64,000 nt of DNA from Longimicrobiales bacterium (lineage in GTDB: Bacteria; Gemmatimonadota; Gemmatimonadetes; Longimicrobiales; Gaopeijiaceae), in assembly GCA_965238005.1 (NCBI GenBank), contig OZ250165.1, forward strand, positions 672,001-736,000, given 5' to 3'. Of this stretch, positions 3,571 to 44,532 are shown piece by piece. A program made the position numbers and the translations under genes. Each line of letters starts with the position of its first letter. Within the stretch, counting starts at the first letter, position 1. A model generated the notes under the pieces. That model was given only the letters and a program-made list of their open reading frames with translations, had not been told where the DNA came from and searched no databases.

Positions 3571-3614
3571 GCCTGATAAGCGTGAGGTCGGTAGTTCGAG
3601 TCTACCCAGGCCCA
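3571..3614 (+). pseudogene. tRNA-Ile(GAT) 3' fragment (anticodon loop to acceptor end), att site of element copy A
   Basis: GCCTGATAAGCGTGAGGTCGGTAGTTCGAGTCTACCCAGGCCCA: GAT loop, T-arm and acceptor 3' strand present; D-arm and 5' half absent; adjacent to the integrase 3' end. Confidence 0.9.
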
Positions 3615-3671
3615 TTGAACTTACGGGAATCTCGGGTCGGATTCCCGCTGTTGGATTCCCGCTGTTCGGGG

Positions 3672-4414
3672 TCAGGAACGGGCTCTGCAGCGGTGCTCGA
3701 GGGCGTTCTTGAGCTGCCCTTGGTTGACTTGCTGGTAGCACTGGAGGACCGTCTGTGCGGTCTTCCAGCCGCCGAGTTCGCATAGCACCTTCAGCGGTTG
3801 GCCCATGAGGTCCGAGGCAAACTTCCGCCTCAGGGAGTGCCAGCCGCGGCCACGCTTTGGTACCAGTCCTGCGAGCGCTACGGCCTTGTTCCACCAGTCG
3901 CGCGCCAGCGAACGGCTCACGCACTTCGACGGGTCCTTCGGCGCGGGCAGCATAGGTATGTCCCCGACTCCGGAGTTCCTCCTCTGCGCCAGTTCCAGAG
4001 CGGCGACCGCTTCTGCGGTTACCGGAGTCAGGTGCTCGTACCCTGTCTTCTCGTGCTCGCCACGCCATCGGATGACCTCACCCGCCACATCGACATCCAG
4101 CCATCGAAGCTGACGGATGGCGCCGATGCGGTGTCCTGTCTCGTGCGCGAGCACGAGAGCGACGTGAAATCGCCAATCGACCTCTCGCGATACCCGCAGC
4201 AGTCGGGCTCGGCGTGGCCTGCGGCGATTTCGTCCGCCTGCCGCTTTGCCCGCCTCCAGTCGCGATGCTTGAGCGACCTGCTCAGCCTACGCCCGTCGTC
4301 GCGCCACTCGATCTGGATCAGGCCGGTCTTGGGATCCGGGAAGACCCGTACCCGGTTCCGGCCCCGTTCGCCGGCGCTGTAGCCCCGGCGGTGTCGTTTC
4401 GTGCGTGCCATCAT
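3672..4414 (-). pseudogene. Tyrosine integrase with ~0.4 kb internal deletion and frameshift
   Basis: N-terminus MMARTKRHRRGYSAGE fused out of frame near 4200 to the catalytic half (ETGHRIGAI, WHSLRRKF, VLQCYQ). Confidence 0.9.
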
Positions 4415-4797
4415 CAGGTTCCTCGCTCGATGACGGACTGCACGATCTGCGCGGTCGAAATCTCGCGCAGAGGAGCCTTCTCGGCCAGACGCGGGGTGGC
4501 CGCTCCGGTCTTCCGGGGGAGGTGGCTCAGGGCGATCCTGGGCGCGCCGGGCCGTCCGGCGTTCGGGATCTTGCCGTCGCGCACGAGGCGGCCGAGATGG
4601 TCCGCGGAGTAGCCACTCTCCCTGGCGGCGTCGGTCAGCGAGAGGGTGGTCTCGTCCCTCTCCCTGAGCGTGGCCTCGAGCTTTGCCGCGCACGCCTCGA
4701 GGGCCACGGCCGGTGTCTCGCCCCCGTATTGGCGGAGCGTCTTGGCCTGCGTCCGCCAGGCGCCGGGCAAGGTCTCGACGGAAGCGCGGCCGGTCAT
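4414..4797 (-). CDS. HTH excisionase-like protein (copy A)
   Basis: LSLTDAARESGYSADHLGRLVRDGKIP, an HTH_17-like motif; directly upstream of the integrase. Confidence 0.75.
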   Translation of the reverse strand: MTGRASVETLPGAWRTQAKTLRQYGGETPAVALEACAAKLEATLRERDETTLSLTDAARESGYSADHLGRLVRDGKIPNAGRPGAPRIALSHLPRKTGAATPRLAEKAPLREISTAQIVQSVIERGT

Positions 4798-4843
4798 GGG
4801 CGTGCTTCCTCCCGAGCGTGAGCGGCCGACCGGATCTCCCCGT

Positions 4844-5158
4844 TCACTCCCACTCCCCCTCGGCGTCTCTACGAAGCGCGTCGCTGAGGCCCGGATCGCC
4901 CTCGCCACGCCGTACCGAGCGCTCGGCGAGATCGACGCGGCGTCCGAGATCGGCGAGTCCGGCGGCGCGAGCGACGGTGTAGATGGCGGACGCGACGGCT
5001 GCGAGCGCCAGCGCGGTGTGCAGGGCGATCGAGACACCGTGAGCGGCGAGGATCGTGGGCCAGAACGGCGCGAGGTACTCGAGCCGCGGACCGGCGAGGA
5101 GGACGACCGATCCGGCGATGGCGGCGCTGAGTCCCGCGCTGATCTTCCAAGGCTGCAT
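4844..5158 (-). CDS. Small membrane protein (copy A)
   Basis: MQPWKISAG..., homologous to 27432-27746 and 41731-42045. Confidence 0.8.
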   Translation of the reverse strand: MQPWKISAGLSAAIAGSVVLLAGPRLEYLAPFWPTILAAHGVSIALHTALALAAVASAIYTVARAAGLADLGRRVDLAERSVRRGEGDPGLSDALRRDAEGEWE

Positions 5159-5178
5159 GGTGGGCTTCTCCCAGGGAG

Positions 5179-5922
5179 TCAGAGCTCGAGCGCGGCCGAG
5201 TCGCGGTCGGCCGGGCCGCGGAGTGAGCTGCGATCGCTGCCCGGCCCGAGGAGTCGGAGGACCCGTCTCCCGGCCGCTCCGTTCGCGTGCATCCGGAACC
5301 CCGCAGCGGCCTTGGCCCGGATGGATCGGCCGTGGTAGTTGCCGGAGGCGACCTCGACGTTGACGCGGCCGGTGCGTCCGTCGGCGTCCACGTACTCGAT
5401 CTGCGCGTCCGGGTAGAGCACGCGTCCCCGGGCGTCGATGGGCAGGTGTAGTTCCTTGGCGGCGCGGTGCCGTTCGGCGTCGGCGGCCCTCCGGCCCTCC
5501 CGAACCCGCGCGGACTCGCTCCGGCGCGCGACGATGCTCTTGAGCTCGCCGTCGAGCCGCACGCGCCGGACGGTGGCGTCCCGCTCGAGCAAGCGGCGGC
5601 GTTCGCGGCCGCAGGCCCGGTAGATCGCGGTGTCGTGTGCGAGCCGGGCGTGCTGGAGGCGGGTGGCGGACCTGATGTGCTGCCCGGGGTCCAGCCCCTG
5701 CCCGGCCGCGGGGTCGCGGATGGCGGCCGCTCCCTTGCGGGTGAGGGTCCGGATCTTGAACGGGTTGCCCTTCGGCCCGGTGGCGGTGGTTTCCTTGGCG
5801 AGCCCCTCGCGGACCCAAGCGTTGACGGCCCGCCGGGTGGTGTAGGGATGGCCGCCGAAGCGAGCCTCGGCTAGGTCCCGGACCGAGACGGCGCCGTAGA
5901 TGCCCACATCGGCGAGCGCCGA
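5179..5922 (-). pseudogene. wHTH/PD-(D/E)xK candidate relaxase, 5' part deleted (copy A)
   Basis: Homologous to 26511-27410 from LADVGIYGAVS onward; fused to the ardC tail. Confidence 0.8.
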
Positions 5923-6715
5923 AGCTTCGGGTCGGAACCGGCAGCGGCAGCTCGGGCCTTGCGGAGTGTTGCGGTGCGGGAGCGCGGGTGGCGGCCACCG
6001 ACGCCGGCTCCCGCTCGGCCTCGCGCTCGCGGCTCCGCGCCAGCACGAAGTCGGAGATCTTCTGCGCATCGGCCGCGGCGCGGCGGATCTCCCGGGGGTC
6101 CTCCTCGAGGGCGGCGACCCACCCCTCGACGTAGGCGGCGCCCCGGCTCGGGTCGTGGCCCACGCCCACCCGCTCGCCGGTCATCATTGCGCTGATCTCG
6201 GCCCGGAGCTCCTCCTTCGCATAGGCCGGCGATCCGAACCCTTCGCTCATCCCCAGGGTGAGCGTGGCGCGATTCATCCGCTCCGGGTGGCCGGTGCTGT
6301 GCCCCAGCTCGTGGAGGGCGGTCTGGTAGTAGTGGTTGGCCGAGGGGAACTGCACCCGTTCGGGGAGCACGATCTCGTCGCGGTTCAGGTTGTAGAACGC
6401 CCGGTCGCCAGCCACGTGACGGACGGGGACCCCGCTGTCCGCGAGCACCCTCTCGGCGTTCTGGTGGACCTTCCAGAGCGGCTCGGCAGTGGGCGCGGGC
6501 CGGGCCCGGAAGCCCATCGGCCTGCTCGGCGTTGAAGACGGTGTACTGCCGGACGAAGGGGGTGGGCAGGCGCTCGTAGCGGTAGACGCGCTTCCCTTCG
6601 TTGTCCGTGGCGGGACGCTCGCTCGCGTCGGTGACGGCGATCTTCCGGTGGTCCTGGAAGGAGAGGATGCGGGTGCCCCGCTCGCCCTTCCTGACCTGAC
6701 CGCCCCGGGCCTAGA
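5923..6715 (-). pseudogene. ardC: ArdC-like gene, 5'-deleted and frameshifted (copy A)
   Basis: HELGHSTGH and YAKEELRAEI motifs; starts mid-gene at RQI; frameshift near 6510. Confidence 0.85.
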
Positions 6716-7175
6716 TCTGGCGGGCGAACGGGTACATGCAGGCGGTGGTCTTGCCGGTGCCGACGGCACCCACGATGAGGATGCCGGTGTAGAGCCCCTT
6801 CTCGGGGACGACGAGCCACGACGGCCCTTCGCTCTCTCGCGCCACGGTCGGATGATGCAGTTCGCCGATCACGAGCGAGGGCGCCTCGTCGCCGGGCGAG
6901 GTGGGCCAGGCGGGGAGCTTCCCGCGAGCGCCGCGCCGGGTACGCGGCTCGAGCCAAACCTTCGAGACCGAGAGGCAGACGCTGCCGGCGAGCAGCAAGG
7001 CGATGCCCGGCACCGCGTAGTACCAGACGTGGATCACCGTGTGTAGGCCCGGATCGTGGTAGGCGATCAGGTCCAGCACGGGGTTTCCGCCGATGCCCGG
7101 AAACGGCGCCAGGAACGCGCGGACCGTGGCCGCCGTCAGAGCGATCCCGATGATGACCAGCGTCCAGGGCCTCAT
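6711..7175 (-). pseudogene. VirD4-like coupling protein, 5' fragment (copy A)
   Basis: Near-identical to the 5' part of 22238-24277 through Walker A GAVGTGKT, then joins ardC and stops. Confidence 0.9.
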
Positions 7176-7209
7176 CGGTCCGACACCCTTCCCGGAGGGA
7201 CTGCTGGCT

Positions 7210-7302
7210 GGGAGCGACCCCGCAGCGGAGGGGACGATGGGGATGCCCATCGCCATCCTCCCCGATGCCGATCGAGGCATGCCGAGATGGGGGGTCGCTC
7301 CC
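7210..7302. repeat. Inverted repeat GGGAGCGACCCC...GGGGTCGCTCCC upstream of virD4 (candidate oriT/ori)
   Basis: 12-bp perfect IR; the same stem occurs at 22118-22203 and 62244-62333. Confidence 0.7.
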
Positions 7303-7696: not shown

Positions 7697-8860
7697 ATGA
7701 TGGCACGCACGAGACGAGTCCGGCGCAGCTATGGCGCCGGCGAATGGGGCCGGAACCGGGTGAGGGTCTTCCCCGATCCCAAGACCGGCTTGTACCAGAT
7801 CGAGTGGCGAGAGAACGGGCGCAGGCTCACCCGGTCGCTGCAACACCGCGACTGGAGGCAGGCGAAGACGCAGGCGGACGAGTTCGCTGCCGGGTTCGCC
7901 GGGCCGGAGCTGAACGGCAAGAAGAACGCCGAGCCCGAGCCGCTCACGCTGGGCACGCTTTTTGACATCTACGGTGAAGAGGTGACGCCCACCAAGGCCG
8001 AGCAGACACGGCGGCGCGACAGGACCGCGACGAGGATGTTCCTCCAGTTCTTCGGACGGGACCGAGACCCGGCAACGCTCTCCCAGCGCGACTGGGACCG
8101 ATTCATCGGCGCGCGGCGCGCGGGAAGGATCGGCATCTCGGGCAAGCCCGTGTCCAACAGGACGATCGAGTGGGACCTGACGTTCCTGATGGCCGTGCTC
8201 AACTGGGCGGCGAGGTCGAAGGACGAAGGGGGCCGCCCGATGCTCGACAGGAATCCGCTGAAGGGCCTCAGGAAGCCCAGGGAGAAGAACCCCACCCGGG
8301 TCGTCCTCACCGAACAGGAGTACCAGGGGTTGTTGAGGGTGTCCCGGGAGGTGGACTGGCGGTTCCATGTCGCGCTCGTACTCGCGCATGAGACCGGGCA
8401 CCGCATCGGTGCCATCCGCAAGCTCCGGTGGTCCGATATCGACTTCGACGGCGAAGCGGTGCGGTGGCGGGCGAAGCACGAGAAGACGGGCTACGAGCAC
8501 ACCACGCCCGTGACCGACGAGGCGTTGGACGCTTTGGAGGAAGCGCGAGCGATGAGCGCCGGGACCGGGGACGGGCCGGTGCTGCCCGCCCCGACGGATG
8601 CCTCGCGGTGCGTGGGCCGGTCGCTGCCGAGCTTCTGGTGGCAGAGAGCCCAGACGCTCGCGGCGCTGGAACCGAAGCGGGGCCGAGGCTGGCACTCGCT
8701 GAGGCGGAAATTCGCGTCCGACCTCATGGACCAGCCCCTCAAGGTGCTGTGCGAACTCGGAGGCTGGAAGACGGCCAAGACTGTCCTCCAGTGCTATCAG
8801 AGAGCCGACGAGGGACAGCTGAGACAGGCGCTCGCGGACCGCCGGAGAGTTCGGGCCTGA
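7697..8860 (+). CDS. Tyrosine integrase, 387 aa (element copy B; integrase plus xis tail only)
   Basis: Catalytic R (TGHRIG), K (EKTG), HSLRR, LGGW and CYQ motifs; preceded by the xis 3' tail; followed by GCGGGAATC repeats. Confidence 0.93.
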   Translation: MMARTRRVRRSYGAGEWGRNRVRVFPDPKTGLYQIEWRENGRRLTRSLQHRDWRQAKTQADEFAAGFAGPELNGKKNAEPEPLTLGTLFDIYGEEVTPTKAEQTRRRDRTATRMFLQFFGRDRDPATLSQRDWDRFIGARRAGRIGISGKPVSNRTIEWDLTFLMAVLNWAARSKDEGGRPMLDRNPLKGLRKPREKNPTRVVLTEQEYQGLLRVSREVDWRFHVALVLAHETGHRIGAIRKLRWSDIDFDGEAVRWRAKHEKTGYEHTTPVTDEALDALEEARAMSAGTGDGPVLPAPTDASRCVGRSLPSFWWQRAQTLAALEPKRGRGWHSLRRKFASDLMDQPLKVLCELGGWKTAKTVLQCYQRADEGQLRQALADRRRVRA

Positions 8861-8952
8861 TCCCAATCAGCGGGAATCAATCGGCGGGAATCGCGCCAGC
8901 CGAATCCGTAAGTTCAATGATCACAACAAGATCTGCACGGGAATGTGCATGC

Positions 8953-9181
8953 TGGCCCAGCGGGCGATCTGGTTCAGGTTCGCCCCGATCCGCGCCAGCT
9001 CGCGGGTGCGCTCCCGCTCCACCTCGGCGTGCGCCACGGTCCACGGGCGCACCCGGCCCACCGACCGGCGCACCAGATCCGACAGCGTTAACCCTGCGGA
9101 GTGCGCCTTGGCGTGCCACTCGGCACGCTCCGCCCCGCTGGCGCGAATCTTCACCCACACGTCGCGTCCAGCGCCCCTCAT
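8953..9181 (-). pseudogene. mobC: MobC-like relaxosome accessory protein, 3'-truncated by the copy B end
   Basis: RHH-like start (VKIRAS...AGLTLSDLVRR) and ELARIGANLNQIARWA motif, cut at about 8952. Confidence 0.8.
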
Positions 9182-9195
9182 GTGCCGTTGCCGTT

Positions 9196-9287
9196 GGGGG
9201 GGTCAGAGGGGGCACAGCCCCCCGCCAGCCCCTGCCGGGGACCCGCGAAGCGTGGCCCCAAAGGGTAAGCTGGCTCTCCCACCTTAG
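9196..9287. other. Putative oriT (ColE1/MOBP-like), copy 1
   Basis: Upstream of mobC; CGCCAGCCCCTGCCGGGGACCCGCGAAGCGTGGCCCC...GCTGGCT shared with 32201-32294; related motif at 36572-36653. Confidence 0.6.
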
Positions 9288-10096: not shown

Positions 10097-12454
10097 ATGG
10101 ACAAGCGAAGCCTGTCGGAGCGCGACATCTGTACGAAGTTCATCACGCCCGCCCTGCGCGGGGCCGGGTGGGACGAGATGTCGCAGCTTCGCGAGGAGGT
10201 GAGCTTCACCAAGGGCCGCATCATCGTGCGCGGCAAGCTGGTCACGCGCGGTAAGGCCAAGCGCGCCGACTACATCCTGTACTTCAAGCCGAACATCCCG
10301 ATCGCGGTGATCGAGGCGAAGGACAATTCTCACAGCGTCGGCGATGGCATGCAGAAGGCTCTGGATTACGCCGAGACGCTGAACATCCCCTTCGTGTTCT
10401 CTTCGAACGGCGACGGCTTCGTGTTCCACGACCGCACGGGGGCCAGTACGCCTCGTGAGGCAGACCTGCCGCTCGACGCTTTTCCGTCACCAGCCGATCT
10501 GTGGGGGCGCTATCGGACCTGGAAGGGCCTGACGCCGGAAGCCGAGGAGATCGTCCTTCAAGACTATTTCGATGACGGCAGCGGCAAGACGCCGCGCTAC
10601 TACCAGGCCAACGCCATCAACGCGGCGATCGAGGCCATCGCCAAGGGGCAGGACCGCATCCTGCTCGTCATGGCCACGGGCACGGGCAAGACGTACACCG
10701 CCTTCCAGATCATCTGGCGGCTGTGGAAGGCGCGGCGAAAGAAGCGCATCCTGTTCCTCGCCGACCGCAACGTGCTCGTCGATCAGACGATGGCGAACGA
10801 TTTCCGCCCCTTCGGCGGGACGATGACCAAGCTCTCTGGCAATATCGATCCCTCCTACGAGGTCTATCTCGGCCTCTATCAGGCGATCACCGGTCCGGAG
10901 GAACACCAGAAGGCCTACCGGAAGTTCTCGCCGGCGTTTTTCGATCTGATCGTGATCGACGAATGCCACCGGGGCAGTGCCGCCGACGATTCGGCGTGGC
11001 GCGAGATCCTCGAGTACTTCTCCTCCGCAACCCAGATCGGCCTCACCGCCACGCCGAAGGAGACGAAGTACGTCTCCAACATCGCCTACTTCGGAGAGCC
11101 GGTCTTCTCCTACTCCTTGAAGCAGGGCATCCGCGACGGCTTCCTCGCTCCCTACAAGGTGGTCAGGATCCATATCGACCGCGATGTCGAGGGCTACCGT
11201 CCGGAGAAGGGCCAGCTCGACCGCGACGGCGAGGAGGTTGAGGATCGCGTCTACAACGTCAAGGACTTCGACCGTACGCTGGTCATCGCCGAGCGGACGG
11301 CCCTGGTAGCGCGGAAGGTCACGGCGTTCCTGAAGGAGAGCGGCGATCGCTTTCAGAAGGCGATCATCTTTTGCGTCGATCAGGAGCACGCGGCGCGGAT
11401 GCGGCAGGCGCTGATCAACGAGAACGCTGATCTCGTTGACGCAAACTCGCGGTATGTCATGCGGATCACGGGCGGCGACGTGGAGGGGCAGGCCGAGCTC
11501 GGCAACTTCATCGACCCGGAATCGAAATACCCCGTCCTCGTCACCACGTCGCGTCTGCTGTCCACCGGCGTCGATGTGCAGACCTGCCAGTTGATAGTGC
11601 TCGAGCGAGCGGTGGGGTCGATGACCGAGTTCAAACAGATCGTCGGGCGCGGCACCCGCGTGCACGAGGACACCGGCAAGTTCTACTTCACGCTCATCGA
11701 CTTCCGGGGCGCTACTAGTCACTTCGCGGACCCGGAGTACGACGGCGAACCCGTGCAGGTCTACGAGCCGGGAGAAGGCGATCCGATCGACCCACCCGAT
11801 GTGGCGCCTACGGACGACGACGGGCTCGGCGACGACGAGATCGTTATCGATGGAGGGGATCCACCACTGCCCCCGGGGATGGGGCCACAGAAGAAGATCT
11901 ATATCGACGGCGTCGAGGTGGCCATCGTCGGCGAGCGGGTGACATACCTCGACGGCCACGGCAAGTTGGTGACCGAGTCGCTGCGCGACTTCACGAGGAA
12001 GGCCTTGCGCAGGCGCTTCGCGAGCCTTGACGACTTCCTGACCCGTTGGAACGCCGTGGAGCGCAAGCAGGCGATCATCGACGAGATGGCGGCCGAGGGC
12101 CTGCCGTTGACGGTGATCGTCCAAGAGTTGGGGAAGGATCTCGACCCCTTCGATCTCGTCTGTCACATCGCCTTCGACGCCAAGCCGCTGACCCGCCGCG
12201 AGAGGGCCGAGAACGTCAAGAAGCGGGACGTGTTCACGAAATACGGAGGTCAGGTCCGCGCCGTACTCGACGCGTTGCTCGACAAGTACGCCGACGAGGG
12301 CATACTCAATCTCGACGACGCCAACGTGCTTAGGATCCCGCCACTTGACAGCCTCGGCACTCCGGTAGAACTGGTCCGCGCCTTCGGTGGGAAGCCCGGC
12401 TTCGAGCGGGCCGTGCACGATCTTCAATCCGCTCTCTACAGGGATATCGCCTAA
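10097..12454 (+). CDS. hsdR: Type I restriction subunit R (EcoEI/EcoAI-like)
   Basis: RADY...IEAK nuclease motif, MATGTGKT, DECHRG, QIVGRGTR helicase motifs. Confidence 0.95.
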   Translation: MDKRSLSERDICTKFITPALRGAGWDEMSQLREEVSFTKGRIIVRGKLVTRGKAKRADYILYFKPNIPIAVIEAKDNSHSVGDGMQKALDYAETLNIPFVFSSNGDGFVFHDRTGASTPREADLPLDAFPSPADLWGRYRTWKGLTPEAEEIVLQDYFDDGSGKTPRYYQANAINAAIEAIAKGQDRILLVMATGTGKTYTAFQIIWRLWKARRKKRILFLADRNVLVDQTMANDFRPFGGTMTKLSGNIDPSYEVYLGLYQAITGPEEHQKAYRKFSPAFFDLIVIDECHRGSAADDSAWREILEYFSSATQIGLTATPKETKYVSNIAYFGEPVFSYSLKQGIRDGFLAPYKVVRIHIDRDVEGYRPEKGQLDRDGEEVEDRVYNVKDFDRTLVIAERTALVARKVTAFLKESGDRFQKAIIFCVDQEHAARMRQALINENADLVDANSRYVMRITGGDVEGQAELGNFIDPESKYPVLVTTSRLLSTGVDVQTCQLIVLERAVGSMTEFKQIVGRGTRVHEDTGKFYFTLIDFRGATSHFADPEYDGEPVQVYEPGEGDPIDPPDVAPTDDDGLGDDEIVIDGGDPPLPPGMGPQKKIYIDGVEVAIVGERVTYLDGHGKLVTESLRDFTRKALRRRFASLDDFLTRWNAVERKQAIIDEMAAEGLPLTVIVQELGKDLDPFDLVCHIAFDAKPLTRRERAENVKKRDVFTKYGGQVRAVLDALLDKYADEGILNLDDANVLRIPPLDSLGTPVELVRAFGGKPGFERAVHDLQSALYRDIA

Positions 12455-12456
12455 GA

Positions 12457-32148: not shown

Positions 32149-32200
32149 CCCGCCCGCCACGACCGCGTCGCTGGCCGCGGGTGGAAGCGCTGGCTCATGC

Positions 32201-32294: not shown

Positions 32295-32442
32295 TTGAGG
32301 CCCGCACTCGGGCGGAGGTCACGGGCGGCTGGCTCGCCCGTTCTTGTGTCCTGGCGGCGCGACCTGATGGCCGGTCGCCCGCACTGGGACCGCCGCCACA
32401 CGCGTGTCGCCGGTCGGTCGGGGTGGAACTTCCCAATCAGCG

Positions 32443-32841: not shown

Positions 32842-32914
32842 CGTCCTTCCGCTCAGCAAAGCGAGCCTCGCCGGCCTTGCCGCACTGGGACAGCCCTTCT
32901 GGTGCCCAGCCGTG

Positions 32915-34666: not shown

Positions 34667-34686
34667 GGTTCCGCCCTCCTAAGGGT

Positions 34687-36217: not shown

Positions 36218-36269
36218 TAACCAGCTCAGGCTGCATCACGAGCCCCCTAGCTCGCATCCTAATACCGCC

Positions 36270-36355
36270 TTGCGCGCCTCCAGAAGCCCCACGACCTCTT
36301 CCAGCGTCCACATTGTGGTCGGCTTACTCCTGCGGCCATAGCCGGGGTCGTGTGG
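36270..36355 (-). pseudogene. IS1-family transposase C-terminal remnant
   Basis: HTTPAMAAGV...MWTLEEVVGLLE, frameshifted. Confidence 0.5.
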
Positions 36356-36571
36356 ATGCCGCCACGGGCCTTCGTAAGCGTCTGATGCTTCCGGTGGAAG
36401 TCGTAGTCCCCGTTCCGGGCTCGGGACAGTGATAGCGCGACGTACGCACAGGTACAAGCGGGAGTCTTCTGGAGCCGGCGACGGTGACGGTGCGGCGATC
36501 AGGCATCGGGACGCACCGGAGGAAGGGGGGCGGAGCCCCCGACTGCGCGCTCCGGCGAAGCGTGGTTTTTC

Positions 36572-36653
36572 GGGGGATCGAAGGGGGGCGGAGCCACCCC
36601 TCGCCAGCCCCTTTGTGGGTACAAGGGGTATGCTGGCTCTTGACCCTTAAGGG
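36572..36653. other. Putative oriT, copy 3 (variant)
   Basis: GGGGATCGAAGGGG...CCTCGCCAGCCCCT...GGGTATGCTGGCT...CCTTAAGG, collinear with copy 2. Confidence 0.55.
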
Positions 36654-36724
36654 GTCATGAGCCAGCCGTGGATCGGCCTCGGATCGGGCCTCAATGGATC
36701 GCCCCCCGGCGGCTGGGAACCGGC

Positions 36725-37885
36725 CTACGCGTGTCGACGCTCGCCAGCCAGGTAGCCCGCCCACTGCTCCATCAGGATGCGGCGGCGCTCGAACAGGTCG
36801 GAGCGGGCGTAGGCGGCCTCCACCCTGTTGCGGACCGCGTGGGCCAGCGCCGCCTCCATGACCGCGTGCGGCGCGTCGGTGCGCTCCGCCGTCCAGTCCC
36901 GGAAGCTGGACCGGAAGCCGTGCGGCACGGCCGCGATCCCGAGCGCCTTGAGCAGGCCCGCGAACTCGAAGCTCGGCAGCACCAGCCCCCGCGCGGACGG
37001 GAACACCCACTCCGAACGAGGCGCGTGCGCCTTCGCCTCGGCCAGGATCTCCCGCGCCCGCGCCGACAGCGGCACCCGGTGCTCCCGCCGGCTCTTCATC
37101 CGCTCCGCCGGGATCGTCCACACTCCGCCCTCCAGGTCGACCTCCTCCCAGCGAGCCCCACGCACCTCGCCCGACCGGCAGGCCGTCAGCACCAGAAACT
37201 CGAAGCCCAGCTGCACCGTCACCCTTGCCTCGGATCGCTGGATCGCGTCAATCGCCCCGGCCACTTCCCGGTAGGGCAGCGCCTTGTAGTGCTTCTGGAC
37301 GCGCGGAGGCCTCGGCAGCGCGGCGCCGATCGCATCGCCCGCGGGGTTGTCCACGCGGTAGCCCTGCGCGATCGCCCACCGCATCACCGTCGAAATCCGC
37401 TGACGGACCCGCTTGGCCGTCTGGTGCTTCCCGTTCCAGACCGGAAGCAGCACCCCCATGACGTCGGCGGACGCGATCCGGTCCACCCGCTTCCCCCCGA
37501 TCCCGGGAAACGCATAGGTGCGCAGCGTCGCCATCCACTGGCCCGCGTGCCTGTCGGTCCAGGTCGGACGGTGCATGGCGAAGACCTTGGCCGCCGCCCG
37601 CTCGAACGTCGGCACTGAACTGTGCCGCTTCGTCCTCGGATCGCCGCCCGCGCGGGCCACCTTGCGGTTGGCCAGCGCCGTGTCCCGCGCCTCGGCCAGC
37701 GTCACGAGGCGGACCGAACCGAGCCCCAACTCCCTGCGCTTGCCGTGAATGAACAGCCGCTGGCTCCACTGCTTGTAGCCGGACGGCTTGACCCGTAGCA
37801 CGAGGCCGTGCTCGTCCCAATACAGCCCCGGTTCCCGGACGCTCCGCACGAAGGCGGCAGTGAGTTTCTTGGCGTGTCTGCCCAT
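36725..37885 (-). CDS. P4-like tyrosine integrase with arm-binding domain
   Basis: GLVLRVKPSG...LGLGS...LAEAR; LTACRSGE, HGFRSSFRDW, LAH, AAYARS, QWAGYL. Confidence 0.95.
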   Translation of the reverse strand: MGRHAKKLTAAFVRSVREPGLYWDEHGLVLRVKPSGYKQWSQRLFIHGKRRELGLGSVRLVTLAEARDTALANRKVARAGGDPRTKRHSSVPTFERAAAKVFAMHRPTWTDRHAGQWMATLRTYAFPGIGGKRVDRIASADVMGVLLPVWNGKHQTAKRVRQRISTVMRWAIAQGYRVDNPAGDAIGAALPRPPRVQKHYKALPYREVAGAIDAIQRSEARVTVQLGFEFLVLTACRSGEVRGARWEEVDLEGGVWTIPAERMKSRREHRVPLSARAREILAEAKAHAPRSEWVFPSARGLVLPSFEFAGLLKALGIAAVPHGFRSSFRDWTAERTDAPHAVMEAALAHAVRNRVEAAYARSDLFERRRILMEQWAGYLAGERRHA

Positions 37886-38040
37886 CTGGTCACCCTTTTG
37901 CGATCACCCCGTGGATCACCCTTTAGGTCTTGGAATATAGCGGCCTTCCTGAGATGGCAATATAACATAAGTATATCCCCTACAACAACTTCACTTGTCT
38001 TATGGGACTTCCTGGAACCTAGATGGACAGTGCGTAGAAG

Positions 38041-38577
38041 GAGTACCAGGCGTTCGCGACCGTCGGCCAGGACGATCCCTCGGGCGACGAGAAGGCGTTC
38101 GCGCTCACGCGGCAGTGCCGCTGCGTCCCGATCGTCGCCACGCAGTCGATCTCCTCGCTCCGCTCCGTGCTGCCCGGAGGCGAGGCCTGGCGCACGCTCC
38201 TCCAGACGCTCCGCACCCGGATCTTCCTGTCGCTGTCCGACGAGTCGTCGGCCCGGATCGCGTCCGAGATGTGCGGCAGCGTCATGAAGACGCAGCCCTC
38301 CTACACGTTCACCGAGACCACGGGCAGGCCCGAGTTCTCGCTCTTGTCCGGGCGAGCCGGCGGGGGCCGCGGCACGATCGGCGCGAGCAAGTCGTTCCGG
38401 CAGCAGAGGGAGCCCGTGTTCACGCCGCGCGAGTTCGCGCTGTTGGCCAACTACCAGGCGATCTGTCTGCCCTACGACGGCACGAAGTCGCTCCCTGCCC
38501 GGCGCGTCTACCTGAAACCCCACTACCTGCCGAGGGACGTGGGCTACTGGCGGCTCCGCGAGGAGGGCCGGATATGA
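38041..38577 (+). pseudogene. VirD4-like 3' fragment (copy D)
   Basis: EYQAFATVGQDD...YWRLREEGRI. Confidence 0.9.
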
Positions 38578-39581
38578 AGCGCGCAAGCGGGATCGCGCAC
38601 CTGAAGCCGTTCCTTCCGGGCCTGGAGACGCTCCTCGAGGACCCGGAGGTCTCCGAGATCATGATCAACGGACCCGGCAACGTCTGGATCGAGCGAGGCG
38701 GCCGACTCGAGCCCCACGAGGCGCCGGGACTCACCGCCGCCTGGCTCCACCGCGCCGCGATCCACATCGCGCGGCCGCTCGGCCTCGATCCCGCCGCCAG
38801 ACCCATCCTCGATGCCCGTCTCGATGACGGCTCAAGGGTCGCCATCTGCACGCCGCCCGCGAGTCCCGAGGTCGCCATCACCATACGCCGGTTCGGGGGC
38901 CGCGCGTTCTCGGCTCAGGACCTGGTGCGCATGGGCTCGCTGCCGGAGACGGTCCTCGGGGCCGCCCGGTCGGCCCTCTTGGCCCGCAGGAACATCCTGG
39001 TCTCCGGAGGCACGGGCTCGGGCAAGACGACGCTCCTCAACGCGCTGATCGAGTTGCTGCCCGAAGACGAGCGGATCGTCGCCATCGAGGACACGCTCGA
39101 ACTCAGGATCGAGCGCGCCAACTGCCTCCGCTTCGAGGCCGGCGCTGTCGGCACCGAGACCCCCGTCTCGATCCGCGACCTGGTGCGGCACGCGCTGCGC
39201 CACCGGCCCGACCACATCGTCGTCGGCGAGGTCAGGGGCGGCGAGGCCGCCGATCTGCTCCAGGCGCTCAAGACCGGCCACGGCGGCTCGCTCACCACCG
39301 TCCACGCGAACAACGCCCGCTCCGCGCTCTCGCGCCTCGCGAGCTGCGCCATGCAGGCCGAAGGCGCGCTTCCCTGGGAGGTCACCTGCCGGGGCGTCGT
39401 GGACGGGATCGCACTTGTGCTGCACACGGCCCGGCAACGGGGCAGGCGGTTCGTCGAGGAGGCGCTCGAAGTGCGCGGCTACGACGCGGCCAAGGGCCGC
39501 TGGATCGCCGAACCGATCCGGAGCGGGGCCGACGAAGCCCCGCAAGAACAGCACCCACACACCAAGGAGGTGAACCCATGA
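38574..39581 (+). CDS. VirB11/CpaF-family ATPase (copy D)
   Basis: Homologue of 24274-25284. Confidence 0.92.
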   Translation: MKRASGIAHLKPFLPGLETLLEDPEVSEIMINGPGNVWIERGGRLEPHEAPGLTAAWLHRAAIHIARPLGLDPAARPILDARLDDGSRVAICTPPASPEVAITIRRFGGRAFSAQDLVRMGSLPETVLGAARSALLARRNILVSGGTGSGKTTLLNALIELLPEDERIVAIEDTLELRIERANCLRFEAGAVGTETPVSIRDLVRHALRHRPDHIVVGEVRGGEAADLLQALKTGHGGSLTTVHANNARSALSRLASCAMQAEGALPWEVTCRGVVDGIALVLHTARQRGRRFVEEALEVRGYDAAKGRWIAEPIRSGADEAPQEQHPHTKEVNP

Positions 39582-39778
39582 AAGGCGACGAGAACATCGT
39601 TCGCGTCGAGACGCTCGATGACTTCGACCGGGAACTCGCGCGCGATGGAGGCGAGGCCCTCGAGGTGCCGGCCTCGCTGGCCGAAGAGTACGGCCTCTTC
39701 TCCGAGGACGTGGGCAGCGAGGACGAGATCCGCGACGCCGGAGAGGATCCGCACGGCCCCGAGGAGGAAGAGCTATGA
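39578..39778 (+). CDS. Small highly acidic protein (66 aa, 24 D/E)
   Basis: Homologue of 25281-25478; AGGAGG RBS. Confidence 0.8.
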   Translation: MKGDENIVRVETLDDFDRELARDGGEALEVPASLAEEYGLFSEDVGSEDEIRDAGEDPHGPEEEEL

Positions 39779-40803
39779 AACACGACGAATACCACCGCCA
39801 GTTCGCCGAGGGGATCATCGAGCAGATCCGCCAGGGCACCGCGCCGTGGCAGAAGCCCTGGGGGCCGGGCGAGCGCGTGCTCCCCTCCAACGTCGATACG
39901 GGCCGCTCCTACAGGGGCGGGAACAGCCTCCATCTCGCCGCCGTGGCCCAGGAGCGCGGCTACGGCGACGTGCGCTGGGGCACCTACCGCCAGATCCAGG
40001 CCCGGGACGGACAGGTCCGCAAGGGCGAGCAGGGCACTCGCATCCTCTCGTTCCAGGACCACCGGAAGATCGCCGTCACCGACGAGCGCGGTCGGCCCAA
40101 GAGGGACAACGAAGGCAAGCGCGTCTACCGCCACGAGCGCCTGCCCACGCCCGTCGTCCGGCAGTACACCGTCTTCAACGCCGAGCAGGCCGACGGGCTG
40201 CCCGCGCGGCCCGCGCCCGCTGCCGAGCCGCTCTGGAAGGCCCACCAGCAGGCCGAACGCGTCCTCGAGGACAGCGGGGTGCCCGTCCGTCACGTGGCGG
40301 GCGACCGGGCGTTCTACAACCTGAACCGCGACGAGATCGTGCTCCCCGAGCGTGGACAGTTCCCCTCCGCGAACCACTACTACCAGACCGCGCTGCACGA
40401 GCTGGGGCACAGCACCGGCCACCCGGAGCGCATGAACCGCGAGACGCTCACCCAAGGGATCTCTGAAGGGTTCGGGTCGCCGGCCTACGCGAAGGAGGAG
40501 CTACGCGCCGAAATCAGTGCCATGATGACGGGCGAGCGCGTGGGCGTCGGCCATGACCCGAGCCGGGGCGCCGCGTACGTCGAGGGCTGGATCGCCGCAC
40601 TCGAGGAGGACCCCCGCGAGATCCGCCGCGCCGCCGCCGACTCGCAGAAGATCTCCGACTTCGTGCTCTCGCGGCACCGCGAGCGCGAGGCCGTGCGCGA
40701 ACCCGCGGCCGTGGCCGCGACCCGCGCGCCCGCGCCGGGGCAGATCGTCCATCCCGTGCCGCCGCTCCCCGTGCCGCAGCGGACCTTCGGACCGCGCCGC
40801 TGA
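39775..40803 (+). CDS. ardC: ArdC-like protein (copy D)
   Basis: Homologue of 25475-26503. Confidence 0.9.
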   Translation: MKHDEYHRQFAEGIIEQIRQGTAPWQKPWGPGERVLPSNVDTGRSYRGGNSLHLAAVAQERGYGDVRWGTYRQIQARDGQVRKGEQGTRILSFQDHRKIAVTDERGRPKRDNEGKRVYRHERLPTPVVRQYTVFNAEQADGLPARPAPAAEPLWKAHQQAERVLEDSGVPVRHVAGDRAFYNLNRDEIVLPERGQFPSANHYYQTALHELGHSTGHPERMNRETLTQGISEGFGSPAYAKEELRAEISAMMTGERVGVGHDPSRGAAYVEGWIAALEEDPREIRRAAADSQKISDFVLSRHREREAVREPAAVAATRAPAPGQIVHPVPPLPVPQRTFGPRR

Positions 40804-40809
40804 CGGTCG

Positions 40810-41712
40810 GTGAGGAGCCAGAAGATGTTCGACCGCACGGTCGAACCGGACCCGCGGACCGCCGCGCCACCCAGCCGCAATCGCTACCGCATGCGGGACG
40901 GCCACCGCCGAGAATACGCCGCGAGCCGGGACCGCGGGTCCACCTCCTTCCCCGAACGGTGCGCGCGCGGGCTCGCCGACATCGGCGTCTACGGCGCCGT
41001 CTCGTACCGCGATCTCGCCGAGACCCGCTTCGGGGGCCATCCCTACACCACCCGGCGGGCCGTGAACGCCTGGATACGGGACGGGCTCGTCACCGAGACC
41101 ACGGCCACCGGACCCAAGGGCAACCCGTTCAAGGTCCTGACGCTCACCCGCAGCGGCGTGGCCGAAGCTCGGAAGCGGGCCGCCGAACGGGGAATGGATC
41201 CCAGCCAGGAAATCCGGTTCGCACGCACCCGGCCTGCGCAAGCCGCGCACGACACCGCCGTCTACCGCGCCTGCATGAAGGAGAAACAGCGCCTGCTCGA
41301 CCGGGGCGCAGCAGTGCGGCGCATCCGGCTCGACACCGAACTCAAGAGCGCCGTCGCGCGCGGGAGCGAGGCGGCGCGGCTGAAGGACGGCAAGCGGGCC
41401 GCCGATGCCGAACGGCACCGCACCGCCAGCGAACTCGGACTCCCGGTCGACGACGAAGGGCACGTGCTCTACCCGGACGCCCAGATCGAGTACACCGACG
41501 CCGAGGGGCGAACTGGACGCGTCAACATCGAGGTCGCGTCCGGCAACTACCGCGAAGGGGCCATCAAGGCGAAAGCGGCGGCCGGGTTCGCGCTCCACGC
41601 CAACGGACCGGCCGCGGCGCGGCTGCTGCGCACGCTCAGCCTGGGCGGCGGCGGCGACCGCTCCTCGCTGCGGGGACCCGCCGACCGCGATCCGGCCGCA
41701 GTCGAACTCTGA
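40810..41712 (+). CDS. wHTH/PD-(D/E)xK candidate relaxase (copy D)
   Basis: Homologue of 26511-27410. Confidence 0.6.
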   Translation: MRSQKMFDRTVEPDPRTAAPPSRNRYRMRDGHRREYAASRDRGSTSFPERCARGLADIGVYGAVSYRDLAETRFGGHPYTTRRAVNAWIRDGLVTETTATGPKGNPFKVLTLTRSGVAEARKRAAERGMDPSQEIRFARTRPAQAAHDTAVYRACMKEKQRLLDRGAAVRRIRLDTELKSAVARGSEAARLKDGKRAADAERHRTASELGLPVDDEGHVLYPDAQIEYTDAEGRTGRVNIEVASGNYREGAIKAKAAAGFALHANGPAAARLLRTLSLGGGGDRSSLRGPADRDPAAVEL

Positions 41713-41730
41713 CTACGGGAGAAGCCCGCC

Positions 41731-42045
41731 ATGCAACCCTGGAAAATCAGCGCCGGCCTCACCGCCGCCATCGCGGGGTCTGCCGTGCTGCTCGCCGGGC
41801 CGCGCCTCGAATACCTCGCGCCGTATTGGCCGCTCCTCCTCGCCGAACACGGCGTCTTGCTCGCCCTGCACCTGGCGCTCGCACTCGCAGCCGTTGCGGC
41901 CGCCATCTACGCCGTCGCACGCGCCGCCGGGCTCGCCGACCTCGGCCGGCGCGTCGATCTCGCCGAGCGCTCCGTTCGGCGCGGCGAGGGGGACCCGGCC
42001 CTCACCGACGCGCTCCGCAGAGACGCCGAGGGCGACTGGGAATGA
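41731..42045 (+). CDS. Small membrane protein (copy D)
   Basis: Homologue of 27432-27746. Confidence 0.8.
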   Translation: MQPWKISAGLTAAIAGSAVLLAGPRLEYLAPYWPLLLAEHGVLLALHLALALAAVAAAIYAVARAAGLADLGRRVDLAERSVRRGEGDPALTDALRRDAEGDWE

Positions 42046-42488
42046 ACGCGGAGACCGGGCGGGCGGCGGGCCGGCGAGATCGACCCAAACGTGCGCGCAC
42101 ACCTCGCGGCGCGTCCGTCGAGACCCTGCCAGTCACCTGGCGGACGCAGGCCAAGGCGCTCCGCCGGTACGGGGGCGAAGCTCCGGCCGTCGCGATCGAA
42201 AGCTGCGCGGCCGAGCTCGAGGCCACGCTCAGGGAGAGGGACGAGACCACCTTCTCGCTGACGGAGGCAGCCAGGGAGAGCGGCTACTCCGCTGACCATC
42301 TCGGCCGCCTCGTGCGCGACGGCAGGATCCCCAACGCCGGAAGGCCCGGCGCGCCCAGGATCGCCCGCTCGCACCTGCCACGGAAGACCCAGGCGCCAGC
42401 CACACCGCTACTGGTGGAAAAGCATCGCCGAGGCGAAGTTTCCAACGCGCAGATCGTGCAGTCCATCATCGAGAGAGGAATCGAATGA
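42042..42488 (+). CDS. HTH excisionase-like protein (copy D)
   Basis: FSLTEAARESGYSADHLGRLVRDG. Confidence 0.75.
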   Translation: MNAETGRAAGRRDRPKRARTPRGASVETLPVTWRTQAKALRRYGGEAPAVAIESCAAELEATLRERDETTFSLTEAARESGYSADHLGRLVRDGRIPNAGRPGAPRIARSHLPRKTQAPATPLLVEKHRRGEVSNAQIVQSIIERGIE

Positions 42489-43648
42489 TGGCACGCACGA
42501 AACCTATCCGGCGCTCCTACGGCGCCGGCGAATGGGGCCGGAACCGGGTACGGGTCTTTCCCGATCCCAAGACCGGCGTGTTCCAGATCGAGTGGCGCGA
42601 GAACGGGCGCAGGCTCACAAGGTCGCTGAAGCACCGCGACTGGAGACGGGCGAAGCGGCAGGCGGACGAGTTCGCCGCTGGCTACCTCGGGCCGGAGCTC
42701 CACCGCAAGGCCGAAGCCGAGCCCGAGCCGCTCACCCTGGAGACGCTTTTTGACATCTACGGTGAAGAGGTGACGCCCACCAAGCGTGGGCGGTCGCGGC
42801 TGCACGACAGGGCCGCGATGAGGATGTTCCTCGGGTGCTTCGGCAGGGACCGGAAGCCCGCAACGCTCTCCCAGCGCGACTGGGACCGGTTCATCCGGGA
42901 GCGGCGCGCGGGCAGGGTCGGACCGAGCGGCAAACCCGTGTCCGACCGGATGATCGAACGGGACCTGAAGTTCCTGCTCGCGGTCCTCAACTGGGCCGTG
43001 AAGTCGAGGGACGAGCGGGGCGAACTGCTCCTCGGCTCGAACCCGCTCAAGGGCCTGAAGACGCCCACGGAGAAGAACCCGACACGGGTGATGCTTACCG
43101 AGGAAGAATACCGGGTCCTGCTCCACGTGTCTCTGGAGATGGACTGGCGCTTTCACGTTGCTCTGGTCCTCGCACACGAGACAGGACACCGCATCGGCGC
43201 CATCCGTCAGCTTCGATGGTCGGACATCGACCTTGAATGCGGAGTGGTGCGGTGGCGCGCAGAGCACGACAAGTCGGGCTACGAGCACCGGACGCCGGTC
43301 ACCGCCGAGGCGCTCGCCGCCTTGGAGGAGGCGCGAAAGAGGAATCCCGGTATCGGGGACGCGCCCGTGCTGCCCTCGCCTTGGGATCGCTCGAGGTGCG
43401 TGAGCTGTTCCTGGACGCAGCGCTGGTGGGAGAAGGCCGTAGCGCTCGCAGGGCTGGAATCCAAGCGTGGCCGCGGCTGGCACTCCCTAAGGCGGAAGTT
43501 CGCCTCCGACCTCATGGACCAGCCGCTCAAAGTGCTCTGCGAACTCGGCGGTTGGAAGGAGGCCAAGACGGTGCTGCACTGCTACCAGCGGGCCGATGAG
43601 GCACAGCTCAGGAAGGCTCTGGAGAGCCGTCGCAGAGTTCGCGCCTGA
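42485..43648 (+). CDS. Tyrosine integrase (copy D), 387 aa
   Basis: TGHRIG, HSLRR, LGGW, CYQ. Confidence 0.93.
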   Translation: MMARTKPIRRSYGAGEWGRNRVRVFPDPKTGVFQIEWRENGRRLTRSLKHRDWRRAKRQADEFAAGYLGPELHRKAEAEPEPLTLETLFDIYGEEVTPTKRGRSRLHDRAAMRMFLGCFGRDRKPATLSQRDWDRFIRERRAGRVGPSGKPVSDRMIERDLKFLLAVLNWAVKSRDERGELLLGSNPLKGLKTPTEKNPTRVMLTEEEYRVLLHVSLEMDWRFHVALVLAHETGHRIGAIRQLRWSDIDLECGVVRWRAEHDKSGYEHRTPVTAEALAALEEARKRNPGIGDAPVLPSPWDRSRCVSCSWTQRWWEKAVALAGLESKRGRGWHSLRRKFASDLMDQPLKVLCELGGWKEAKTVLHCYQRADEAQLRKALESRRRVRA

Positions 43649-43740
43649 GACCAATCAGCGGGAATCAATCGGCGGGAATCCGGTCCGGTATGCCCGTAAG
43701 TTCAATTACCCCAAGCAGATGTGAACCTGTCGGCTTCTGC

Positions 43741-44532
43741 CCACTCGGCCCCCCGCACCTCACCCCATCGTGCCGCCGTCAGCACCAGGAACTCGAACGC
43801 CAGCCGGACGGCCAGCGGCACCGTTGATGCCCGCGCGGTCTGGATGGCCGCGGCCACCTCTCGATGCGGCAGCGCCCGCATGTGCTGCACGACGTCACGC
43901 TGGGGACCCAGGACCGGCCCGATCCGGTCGCACGGGTTGTCGATCCGGAACTCCATCGCCACCGCCCACTCCAACACCGCGCGGATGCGCTGCCGCAACC
44001 GCCGGGCGGTGTCCGCCTTCGTGTGCCAGATGGGAGCGAGGATCTCCAGCACGTCGGCGCTAGTGACCTCCGAGACCGGCATCTTCCCGATGCGCGGAAA
44101 GGCGTACCGCTCGAAGGTCAAGATCCAGTCGCGGCCGTGCGCCCGATTTCGCCAGCCGGCTTGCTTCTGTTCCACCACACGCGCGGTGGCTTCGGCGAAG
44201 CTCGGTACGCCCTGCCTACGACGCTTCTCGGCAAGCGGGTCGCCGCCCTCGCGGGCCAGCTTACGGTTGGCCAGCGCCTTTTCCCGGGCCTCGGCGAGGG
44301 AGACCAGCGCAACGCTGCCGAGCCCGAGCTCGCGGCGCCGACCCCGGATGACCAGGCGCTGAATCCAGCTTCGGGTTCCGCTCGGCTGGACGAAGAGGTA
44401 CAACCCGTTGCCGTCCGCGTGTCTTCCAGGCGGGGCAGTGCGCACGAAGGCGGCCGACAGGGCCTTGTCGGGATGGCGGCCCTTGGGCTTGGTTTTCCGG
44501 GGCGGAGTGGCCTTGTTCGTTCCAGTAATCAT
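43741..44532 (-). pseudogene. P4-like tyrosine integrase, C-terminus cut off by the copy D end
   Basis: HADGNGLYL arm domain through LTAARWGEVRGAEW; lacks HxxR and Y. Confidence 0.9.

Follow-up and report, generated by a model that had tools for sequence, protein, structure and literature searches.

Introduction

Many tyrosine integrases cross over within the 7-nucleotide (nt) anticodon loop of a transfer RNA (tRNA) gene, with the attachment site of the element (attP) carrying the 3' part of the tRNA, and sublocation classes of such tRNA-targeting integrases were reportedly set out by Williams in 2002. The lambda and HK022 integrases use arm- and core-type sites and a 7-bp overlap that must match, and their specificity shifts through core and overlap; secondary att sites are known for lambda. 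The integrases of Tn916 and CTnDOT, which are tyrosine recombinases of conjugative elements, use many sites and leave unlike coupling sequences at the two ends. Here we describe an integrase family, Int387, from a 64,000-nt stretch of DNA (hereafter the window) of a Longimicrobiales bacterium in the phylum Gemmatimonadota (assembly GCA_965238005.1, contig OZ250165.1). The window spans genome positions 672001-736000 of a single 4.84-Mb contig and holds four copies of the integrase end, called A to D. We give a rough probability of 0.87 to the reading that one integrase family kept the layout of a tRNA attachment site, changed its 7-bp overlap repeatedly, and now inserts in many genes, including those of mobile elements.

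The context of integration into tRNA genes is provided in part by the Islander report (PMC4383910). In the portion of the report cited here (PMC10111431), an integrase clade of helper-embedded satellites, the phage-inducible chromosomal islands (PICIs), has moved repeatedly into late genes of prophages; its crossover core is 7 bp long, and a doubled arm motif flanks the attP centre at set distances to either side. On that partial account, the clade is the closest described parallel to Int387, which also moves into mobile-element genes with a 7-bp core and doubled arms. Streptococcal integrative mobilizable elements (IMEs) appear, in the cited parts of two further reports (PMC5357655, PMC5704250), as integrated in conserved genes of integrative conjugative elements (ICEs) such as traG/virD4.

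Results

Downstream of each integrase stop codon in the window are two GCGGGAAYC repeats spaced 14 nt, and a TAAGTTCAA box starts 25 nt past the start of the second repeat and 48 nt past the stop. The 35 nt that follow the box (the spacer) end at 3580 in copy A, which lies on the minus strand, at 8952 in B, at 29394 in C and at 43740 in D, and the next seven bases are TTATCAG, TGGCCCA, TGGATCA and CCACTCG, respectively. A preliminary description of the window, made from the sequence alone, had given this layout, its end positions and strings, the four 7-mers and the presence of GC after the 7-mer in three of the four copies, and all of these are correct on our reading. Exact matches to the box occur in the window at 3615-3623(-), 8909-8917, 29351-29359, 43697-43705 and 3525-3533(-), five against 2.06 expected; the last is a second box of copy A, additional to the four described before, with box starts 90 bp apart. 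The blocks are not a product of chance, as self-BLAST identifies them as flanks of paralogous genes. The B, C and D integrases are paralogues with 76-78% protein identity to each other, and their catalytic domain matches PF00589 at 55.6-61.1 bits (51.8 bits for the remnant in copy A; cut-off 27.1). Curated subfamilies (XerC/D, XerA, P4-type) were not reached, the best NCBIfam score being 33 bits against a cut-off of 220, and no Pfam match to Arm-DNA-bind_3 or Phage_int_M was found in the Int387 integrases, whose N terminus matches no Pfam arm-binding family. Foreign sequence had been placed immediately after the 35 nt. Instead, homology to intact mobC, virD4 and P4-like integrase paralogues starts at the 7-mer, no more than 2 nt from its first base, and element and target have the 7-mer in common.

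To follow the layout beyond the window, we took 615 candidate stretches from the species collection, of which 593 encode relatives and 80 loci were kept (L numbers below; G numbers denote genomes). In these loci and in the present genome, tblastn matches of the integrase C terminus gave 100 integrase ends, which were anchored on the arm pair alone. Box, 35-nt spacer and 7-mer were present in 96 of the 100, so the fixed geometry held after homologues were collected; copy F of this genome and L041 have 34 nt because of a 1-nt deletion. There are 45 different 7-mers among the 96 junctions. A complete tRNA adjoins the junction in none of the 80 foreign loci, the only one found lying ~1.4 kb away in L045. 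GC closes the spacer in 54 of 81 distinct junctions and opens the flank in 46 of them. The earlier proposal of insertion at non-tRNA sites resembling GC-N7-GC thus survives as to the absence of tRNAs and the GC preference, but the targets are not arbitrary, since the junctions recur and those in the window fall in mobile-element genes.

Throughout the genome the TAAGTTCAA box has two contexts, one behind integrase ends and the other inside a second repeat of ~190 bp, the P arm, which has 17 copies, one of them adjoining copy A in the window; five other genomes have at least 34-42 P-arm matches each. The ~190 conserved bases of the alignment start with GCG, carry TAAGTTCAA 39 nt on and end in two GCGGGAAYC-like repeats, and each copy in this genome is preceded by a 7-mer and, before that, by unrelated sequence. 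Copy A and a copy at genome 23220 have the P arm immediately behind the integrase-side 7-mer, so that the full series of arms, box, 35 nt, 7-mer and P arm represents a complete attP. From the integrase stop, attP comprises two GCGGGAAYC arm repeats, the TAAGTTCAA box, a spacer of 35 nt with YGC at its end and the 7-bp overlap, where strands would be exchanged; beyond the overlap it continues with GCG and the ~190-bp P arm, which carries a second TAAGTTCAA, 39 nt away from the overlap, and a further two arm-type repeats. The arm-type repeats, two in the integrase-side (P') arm and two in P, all have one orientation, in what would be a heterobivalent layout of the lambda type. We also considered TAAGTTCAA as an outward -10 element driving the tRNA, and a simple sigma-70 scan at copy D and at the tRNA copy with a 5' half (below) gave nothing. 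No Rfam match was obtained anywhere in the window, so the P-arm repeat there corresponds to no known RNA family.

Pairs of element ends point to the 7-mer as the crossover. The integrase of copy B (7697-8860, plus strand) is intact, with 387 residues and a PF00589 match, and is followed by its right junction, attR (8870-8959, plus strand), made up of repeats at 8870-8878 and 8884-8892, the box at 8909-8917, the spacer at 8918-8952 and the 7-mer TGGCCCA at 8953-8959. The left junction, attL, has the same 7-mer at genome 669072-669078, 2.9 kb before the window starts. There TGGCCCA adjoins the P arm at 669092, and ahead of this 7-mer lies the reversed 3' part of mobC, whose translation continues that of an intact paralogue after the residues ..ARWA; attR, in the same orientation 11.9 kb further on, has TGGCCCA and then the reversed 5' part. 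This 5' part (8953-9202, minus strand; NikA/MobC-like by Pfam and by comparison with the intact paralogue) is cut after the codons for ..ARWA, and its last 10 codons are spacer. The flanks of attL and attR therefore translate as two halves of one mobC. We rejected the idea that mobC is intact at B, to which a NikA profile covered at positions 3-71 of 72 had pointed: the intact paralogue is ~35 residues longer, and the missing part lies beside attL. Elsewhere, at genome 2770033, another mobC is broken exactly at the TGGCCCA site, with different sequence on its other side and neither Int387 arm present.

A second pair lies across the assembly origin, where an integrase end at 4827960(-) has ATCGGCA and the 3' part of mobC, and a P arm at 14457(-) has the 5' part of mobC and ATCGGCA. 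When the identity blocks of the two pairs, TGGCCCAGCGG and GCATCGGCA, are set in register, only the 7-mer is common to both. In five foreign genomes, we matched integrase ends with the nearest same-strand P arm on the proper side among the matches listed, a test that covered the 17 of 25 integrase loci with such a candidate. The nearest P arm carried the exact 7-mer of the integrase end, 7.5-38 kb away, in 15 of the 17, and one further pair, ~3.5 kb apart, was found within L031, so that 16 of the 17 loci have matching 7-mers; the two ends of the CGCGTAG pair in G031 share the 7-mer and no base beyond it. Uninterrupted targets agree with this placement. P4-like integrase paralogues run through the D site with CCACTC(C/G) followed by GCCC, the homology starting at 43741; intact virD4 paralogues carry TGGATCG and then the same next bases as the flank of C; and an intact mobC carries TCGCCCA at the site. 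By these junctions the 7-mer is the crossover, duplicated at both element ends.

The link to tRNA sites comes from copy A. Its 35 nt, 7-mer and following GC are identical over 44 nt (100%) to the tRNA-Ile(GAT), the only gene for which lies at genome 2838657-2838731, 2.16 Mb away. All parts of copy A are on the minus strand: a decayed P arm at 3340-3572, which aligns with the 16 other P-arm copies and has the second TAAGTTCAA 39 nt past the 7-mer; the 7-mer TTATCAG at 3573-3579, the anticodon loop in reverse complement and the putative crossover region; the spacer at 3580-3614, the reverse complement of the tRNA 3' half from anticodon stem to discriminator base; the P' arm at 3615-3662, with the box at 3615-3623 and repeats at 3640-3648 and 3654-3662; and an integrase remnant at 3678-4414, in which residues 212-386 are joined to 1-72 with ~420 bp deleted, all self-BLAST alignments breaking at 4202/4203. 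Only copy A has an attP that carries the tRNA from anticodon loop to 3' end; B, C and D do not. Copy A had been described as a tRNA att site. The identity to the 3' half bears this out, but ARAGORN finds no complete tRNA in the window and the 7-mer runs directly into the P arm; judged by that junction, copy A is the attP of a tRNA-Ile-type element, still unrecombined, and not an element sitting in a tRNA. The decayed element with this intact attP occupies 3340-7223 and lies inverted inside the B element (genome 669072 to window 8959).

Occupied tRNA-Ile sites exist in two forms. In the classical form, seen in G005, a complete tRNA-Ile is followed directly after its discriminator base by the reversed box, the arm repeats and the integrase end; this integrase is itself cut at TGGTAGC by another P arm. 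In the present genome, the tRNA-Ile(GAT) gene is preceded by an integrase (the copy at 2838645, 80% identical to that of D), arm repeats, box and 3 nt, and reads away from the integrase. A tRNA 5' half with loop and GCG, followed by a P arm, is found at genome 891178, and its upstream flank is similar (80% over 128 nt) to what precedes the uninterrupted tRNA-Ile in G005. This native flank indicates that the variant supplies the 5' half of the tRNA and everything upstream of the gene. In a search for an empty tRNA-Ile allele, 2-kb flanks matched mainly copies of insertion sequences (IS), and the 85 nt upstream of the tRNA were informative. The displaced 5' half with its native flank lies 1.95 Mb from the tRNA-Ile(GAT) gene and on the other strand, which implies a later large inversion. 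Other displaced fragments are 3' halves after a reversed P arm at 4326015 and 652651. An element stands beside a complete restored tRNA only in the G005 relative and, with the 5' half, at genome 2838645. In both orientations exactly 35 nt, ending in CACGC, separate box and loop: in the 3' half these are 5 of stem, 5 of variable loop, 17 of T arm, 7 of acceptor and 1 more, and in the 5'-half variant the tRNA half is padded with 3 nt to the same 35. In tRNA-Ile members the 7-mer is the anticodon loop between the two strands of the anticodon stem, and the spacer is the tRNA 3' half. Separately, the genome has two dense arrays of 17 tRNA genes (1035994-1037821 and 4451264-4453598), the first with a tRNA-Ile(AAT) and an odd two-base anticodon call.

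We asked whether spacers away from tRNA genes retain a trace of such a half. The 89 non-tRNA spacers fall into 38 clusters, and a position matrix from 38 distinct spacers was compared with the 50 class-I tRNAs of the genome. The conserved positions are AGAT at 12-15 (T15 invariant), GAA at 18-20 and TGC at 33-35. Reverse-complemented tRNA 3' halves scored 0.380 in register and 0.20-0.29 at 28 other offsets; the controls were 0.273 for 5' halves, at most 0.313 for the forward strand, and 0.251 (standard deviation 0.043) for random genomic 35-mers. The agreement is located at the T-loop positions. The register score thus supports descent of the spacer from a tRNA half, and the suggestion that the other copies carry decayed tRNA-like sequence stands. 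A different origin is nevertheless possible, if in our view doubtful: the likeness may reflect a protein-binding motif, for the core domain of the integrase or for a bending protein, which the T arms of tRNAs happen to fit, and the register test fits such a shared motif equally well. The best-conserved positions, AGAT 12-15 and GAA 18-20, make one motif, and a similar one, GTGTGAATC, lies in the P arm at a similar distance and in the same orientation. The distance itself speaks for a tRNA, as 35 nt is the tRNA distance from anticodon loop to discriminator base, and in both A and G005 the end of the tRNA runs straight into the box; moreover, an integrase in this genome with 54% identity sits at a tRNA-Pro in the classical way. 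The 5'-half variant cuts both ways, having integrated at a tRNA with 3 of 9 motif bases only, which is awkward for a required motif, and having done so without a T-loop-like motif, which is awkward for the tRNA-half spacer.

The flanks that abut the 7-mer include genes of the same integrase family in 12 cases (at about five positions), P4-like integrase genes in four, mobC in four and virD4 in one. Open frames of 70 codons or more adjoin 59 of the 66 distinct foreign junctions, and Pfam names 25 of these genes: IstB (the IS21 helper), a relaxase, Mrr/ResIII, DUF1156, a metallo-beta-lactamase-fold protein, peptidase S9 and others. Metabolic and transport genes are cut too, an FMO-like oxygenase at profile position 207 of 532 and DctM at 179 of 413. 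Given this variety, insertion in genes of other mobile elements is frequent, and the rule in the window, but not exclusive. A TGGTAGC subtype (L021, L063, L067, L111; genome 23356), found in at least four genomes, has the integrase gene of its own family as the target and enters it close to the 3' end, in the conserved C-Y-Q codons.

As for the choice of target, each 7-mer group may be a strictly site-specific integrase that co-evolved with one attB, the many flanks then being those of multi-copy or divergent target genes. The 7-mer groups do largely track integrase clades, with 80-90% identity between groups and 94-99% within them (L028, whose coordinates are out of frame, was left out of the identity table). 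Homologous genes are also revisited, as with TGCGGTA in two paralogous G032 flanks, with CGCAGTA, which has only two flank types in seven loci, and at the recurrent mobC, virD4 and integrase sites; and at the mobC and P4-like integrase sites the match between attP and attB extends to 5-8 of the 8-12 bases adjoining the 7-mer. Against strict specificity, CGCGTAG has 11 unlike flanks in 12 loci, CCGTCCG six in six and TGCGGTA five in seven, and the named flank genes differ (Mrr/ResIII, DUF1156, TMEM164, DinB, PD40). The spacer and 7-mer of copy D recur in L014, L015, L016 and L018 with three different flanks, whereas the L013 integrase, 98.2% identical to that of D, has another 7-mer and another flank. 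Pairs of attP and attB share little past the 7-mer except GC. We therefore regard strict co-evolution as unlikely to be the whole account.

Insertion of the Tn916/CTnDOT kind, with unlike coupling sequences and an integrase-side 7-mer that is target DNA picked up at each jump, is improbable. It could draw on one spacer that occurs with CGCCTCG, CTGACCG and CTTCCCG, on another that occurs with CCACTCG and CCCTACG, and on single-base differences between the 7-mers of copies B and E and of genome 4827957 (L005) and L038. The end 7-mers, however, are identical in the two pairs of this genome and in the 16 of 17 loci elsewhere, and one 7-mer travels with one spacer type to many flanks; the tolerance of heterologous overlaps that the preliminary description had borrowed from Tn916-type integrases is not needed, since the end 7-mers agree in every pair found. 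That the junctions are scars of deletion and rearrangement or metagenome-assembly chimeras has almost no probability left, for although the region consists of decayed nested elements (A with internal deletions, C and D without left ends) and the genome is a metagenome-type assembly, judged from its relatives, it was assembled as one contig, its junctions recur in independent assemblies (that of D in L014 and L015; the mobC ATCGGCA type, as ATTGGCA, in L038), and the split genes have exact 7-bp repeats.

The reading that a tRNA-site layout was kept while the overlap changed draws its strength from the layout, the 7-bp direct repeats, the split genes and their recurrence in independent genomes, all of them sequence-level evidence. 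Several observations weigh against it, beside the two already raised for the spacer. The last base of the C 7-mer is A, against G in four intact virD4 paralogues; position 2 of the 7-mer distinguishes B from E; and position 3 distinguishes L038 from the copy at genome 4827957 (L005). An overlap of 6 bp, or one shifted by 1-2 nt, could account for this, as could a tolerance of mismatches; these within-type differences suggest either such tolerance or co-variation of attP and target. In three spacer clusters the 7-mers are clearly different. The window holds no P-arm partner for C or D, many ends in the genome are orphans, much of the picture is decayed, and the intact attP of A sits inverted inside the B element. 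Finally, no circular attP junction was seen in short Logan contigs aligned to the B element, and the evidence is from sequence only. One Logan joint, 781 to 12685 of L096 (22 other letters, side 21; 3 runs, 2 studies), was judged to be an uninterrupted mobC variant, probably of a paralogue or another organism, and was given no weight.

About ten copies of the integrase are present in the genome, and the kind of element that carries them is indicated by the region of copy F. Over genome 812701-848400, from P arm to integrase, this region encodes AlpA, VirB2, B3, B4, B9, B10, B6, B8, VirD4, a VirB11-like protein and ArdC. The VirB set between P arm and integrase would place Int387 with VirB/Trb-type (MPF-T) conjugative elements. 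The flanking P arm at 812854 and the copy F integrase end at 848176 carry different 7-mers, and no relaxase was found between them. The window copies contain the virD4-to-integrase module only. From this gene content, the family probably belongs to VirB/Trb-type ICEs and smaller mobilizable derivatives, which are very abundant in Longimicrobiales; a literature search for published work on conjugative elements of Gemmatimonadota found none on the subject. The P arm at 794928 and copy F were considered as a single 53-kb element and rejected as such, because a virD4 5' part ends in the 37 nt that form the left flank at 794928, and the right flank of F is another gene.

The window as a whole is a stack of nested, partly decayed elements, with restriction systems and IS around the repeated module, which consists of virD4, a virB11-like ATPase gene, ArdC, three open reading frames (ORFs) without family and the integrase. 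In copy C the module occupies 22154-29302 (plus strand; Pfam assignments), with the integrase at 28139-29302, and attR follows at 29312-29401 (plus strand; repeats 29312-29320 and 29326-29334, box 29351-29359, spacer 29360-29394, 7-mer 29395-29401); copy F (genome 848176) matches copy C through the 7-mer and then diverges. The target of C is a virD4 fragment from about codon 279 (29395-30162, plus strand), recognized by self-BLAST to 22979-23749, by blastx and by intact paralogues; the element ending in D has its virD4 in pieces, of which this is the first. A 7.9-kb island at 30163-38040 in the same virD4 carries a P4-like integrase at 36725-37885(-), GmrSD, a trypsin-like peptidase and an HU-like protein, and the two virD4 pieces around it are contiguous at genome 493187-498891. 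The remainder of virD4 opens the D module (38041-43648, plus strand), which continues with a virB11-like ATPase gene, ArdC, small ORFs and the integrase at 42485-43648. The attR of D (43658-43747, plus strand) has repeats at 43658-43666 and 43672-43680, the box at 43697-43705, the spacer at 43706-43740 and the 7-mer at 43741-43747, and its target is a P4-like integrase gene (43741-44532, minus strand) in which Pfam finds arm-binding and central domains only, the catalytic C-terminal part being absent.

Two further observations concern the virD4 region. The junction of a P4-like integrase with the virD4 remainder recurs at genome 330504-325447 and 875088-880358. At genome 493187 and 2736168 the end of a third, unrelated element abuts virD4 13 nt from the C site, so this stretch of virD4 has been struck by at least three kinds of element. 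The rest of the window is rich in defense and transposition genes. A type I restriction-modification system (10097-16510) is followed by a DUF4411 gene (16754-17245); an McrBC restriction locus is present as an inverted duplicate (17236-19684 and 55411-57861, 89% identical); and a gene for an MmeI-like restriction-modification protein at 57668-59766 is split over two overlapping frames, the first with the N-terminal, helicase and methylase-start parts and the second with the target recognition domain and C-terminal parts, and looks frameshifted. An IS with a DDE transposase (53100-54797) has five further genome copies at 99.6-99.9% identity, two Mutator-family (IS256-like) transposase genes lie at 45392-46771 and 47241-48401, and a 1.35-kb IS and a 0.5-kb repeat each have at least nine further copies at ~100% identity.

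Discussion

The junctions suggest how Int387 may work. The N-terminal domain of the integrase would bind the arm repeats and the enzyme would cut at the edges of the 7-mer. Integration duplicates the 7-mer at both ends of the element. Most members keep the scaffold, have other 7-mers and core-proximal bases, and insert in protein-coding genes; a new 7-mer may be captured at a secondary site. In its most far-reaching form, which we put forward tentatively and think less probable than not by some distance, Int387 would be a naturally programmable integrase, with constant protein and arms and a target chosen almost only by the 7-bp overlap and the flanking GC. A new overlap would then originate in integration at a mismatched secondary site, the element taking the target's overlap with it on excision, and the self-targeting forms (in the family's own integrase gene, mobC, virD4 and relaxase genes) might be competitors or hitch-hikers selected to disable or ride their relatives. 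Were this so, a change of the seven bases would retarget insertion without any change of protein.

The family offers a large natural series on one attP scaffold, with 45 overlaps in 96 junctions and a crossover fixed to 7 bp by many attL/attR pairs. It bears on how tRNA-targeting integrases escape to new targets with the tRNA half left behind as a spacer, on how mobile elements come to target each other's transfer and integration genes, and on the retargeting of integrases by overlap editing; integrases for chosen genomic sites are an aim of one report (PMC12884075), in the part cited here. It also documents probable conjugative elements in Gemmatimonadota.

Compared with integrases that use the anticodon loop, the tRNA-Ile members are conventional: in A and in G005 the stretch of identity to tRNA-Ile spans loop to 3' end, integrase and restored tRNA are convergent, and inverted stem strands flank the loop. 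Unlike those integrases, Int387 is at a tRNA in a minority of cases (in none of the 80 foreign loci), one variant supplies the 5' half and the upstream region, and the tRNA half would be kept as a spacer of fixed length in members off the tRNA. The PICI clade, as far as the cited portion of its account extends (PMC10111431), consists of phage satellites in Enterobacteriaceae, whereas Int387 is found in conjugative and mobilizable elements of Gemmatimonadota, has at least 45 7-mers and targets its own integrase gene and ordinary chromosomal genes as well; a tRNA-derived spacer, as proposed for Int387, is not met in that portion. Like the streptococcal IMEs in the parts of the reports cited (PMC5357655, PMC5704250), Int387 elements nest in conjugation genes of resident ICEs, virD4 included, but the invader is often an ICE of the same kind with its own integrase of the family, and the phylum is another.

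Int387 shares the lambda-type layout with the lambda and HK022 integrases, with far more specificities on one scaffold, and it shares the use of many sites with Tn916 and CTnDOT, but its end 7-mers are identical in all pairs found. The P4-like integrase of the island at 30163-38040 belongs to another clade, with Arm-DNA-bind_3 and Phage_int_M domains and another core, and lacks both the tRNA-like spacer and TAAGTTCAA. Set beside these systems, what distinguishes Int387, as its junctions present it, is the scale of variation on a single scaffold, the putative tRNA half as a fixed-length spacer, the use of the tRNA-Ile loop in both orientations, and the targeting of its own integrase, mobC, virD4 and relaxase genes.

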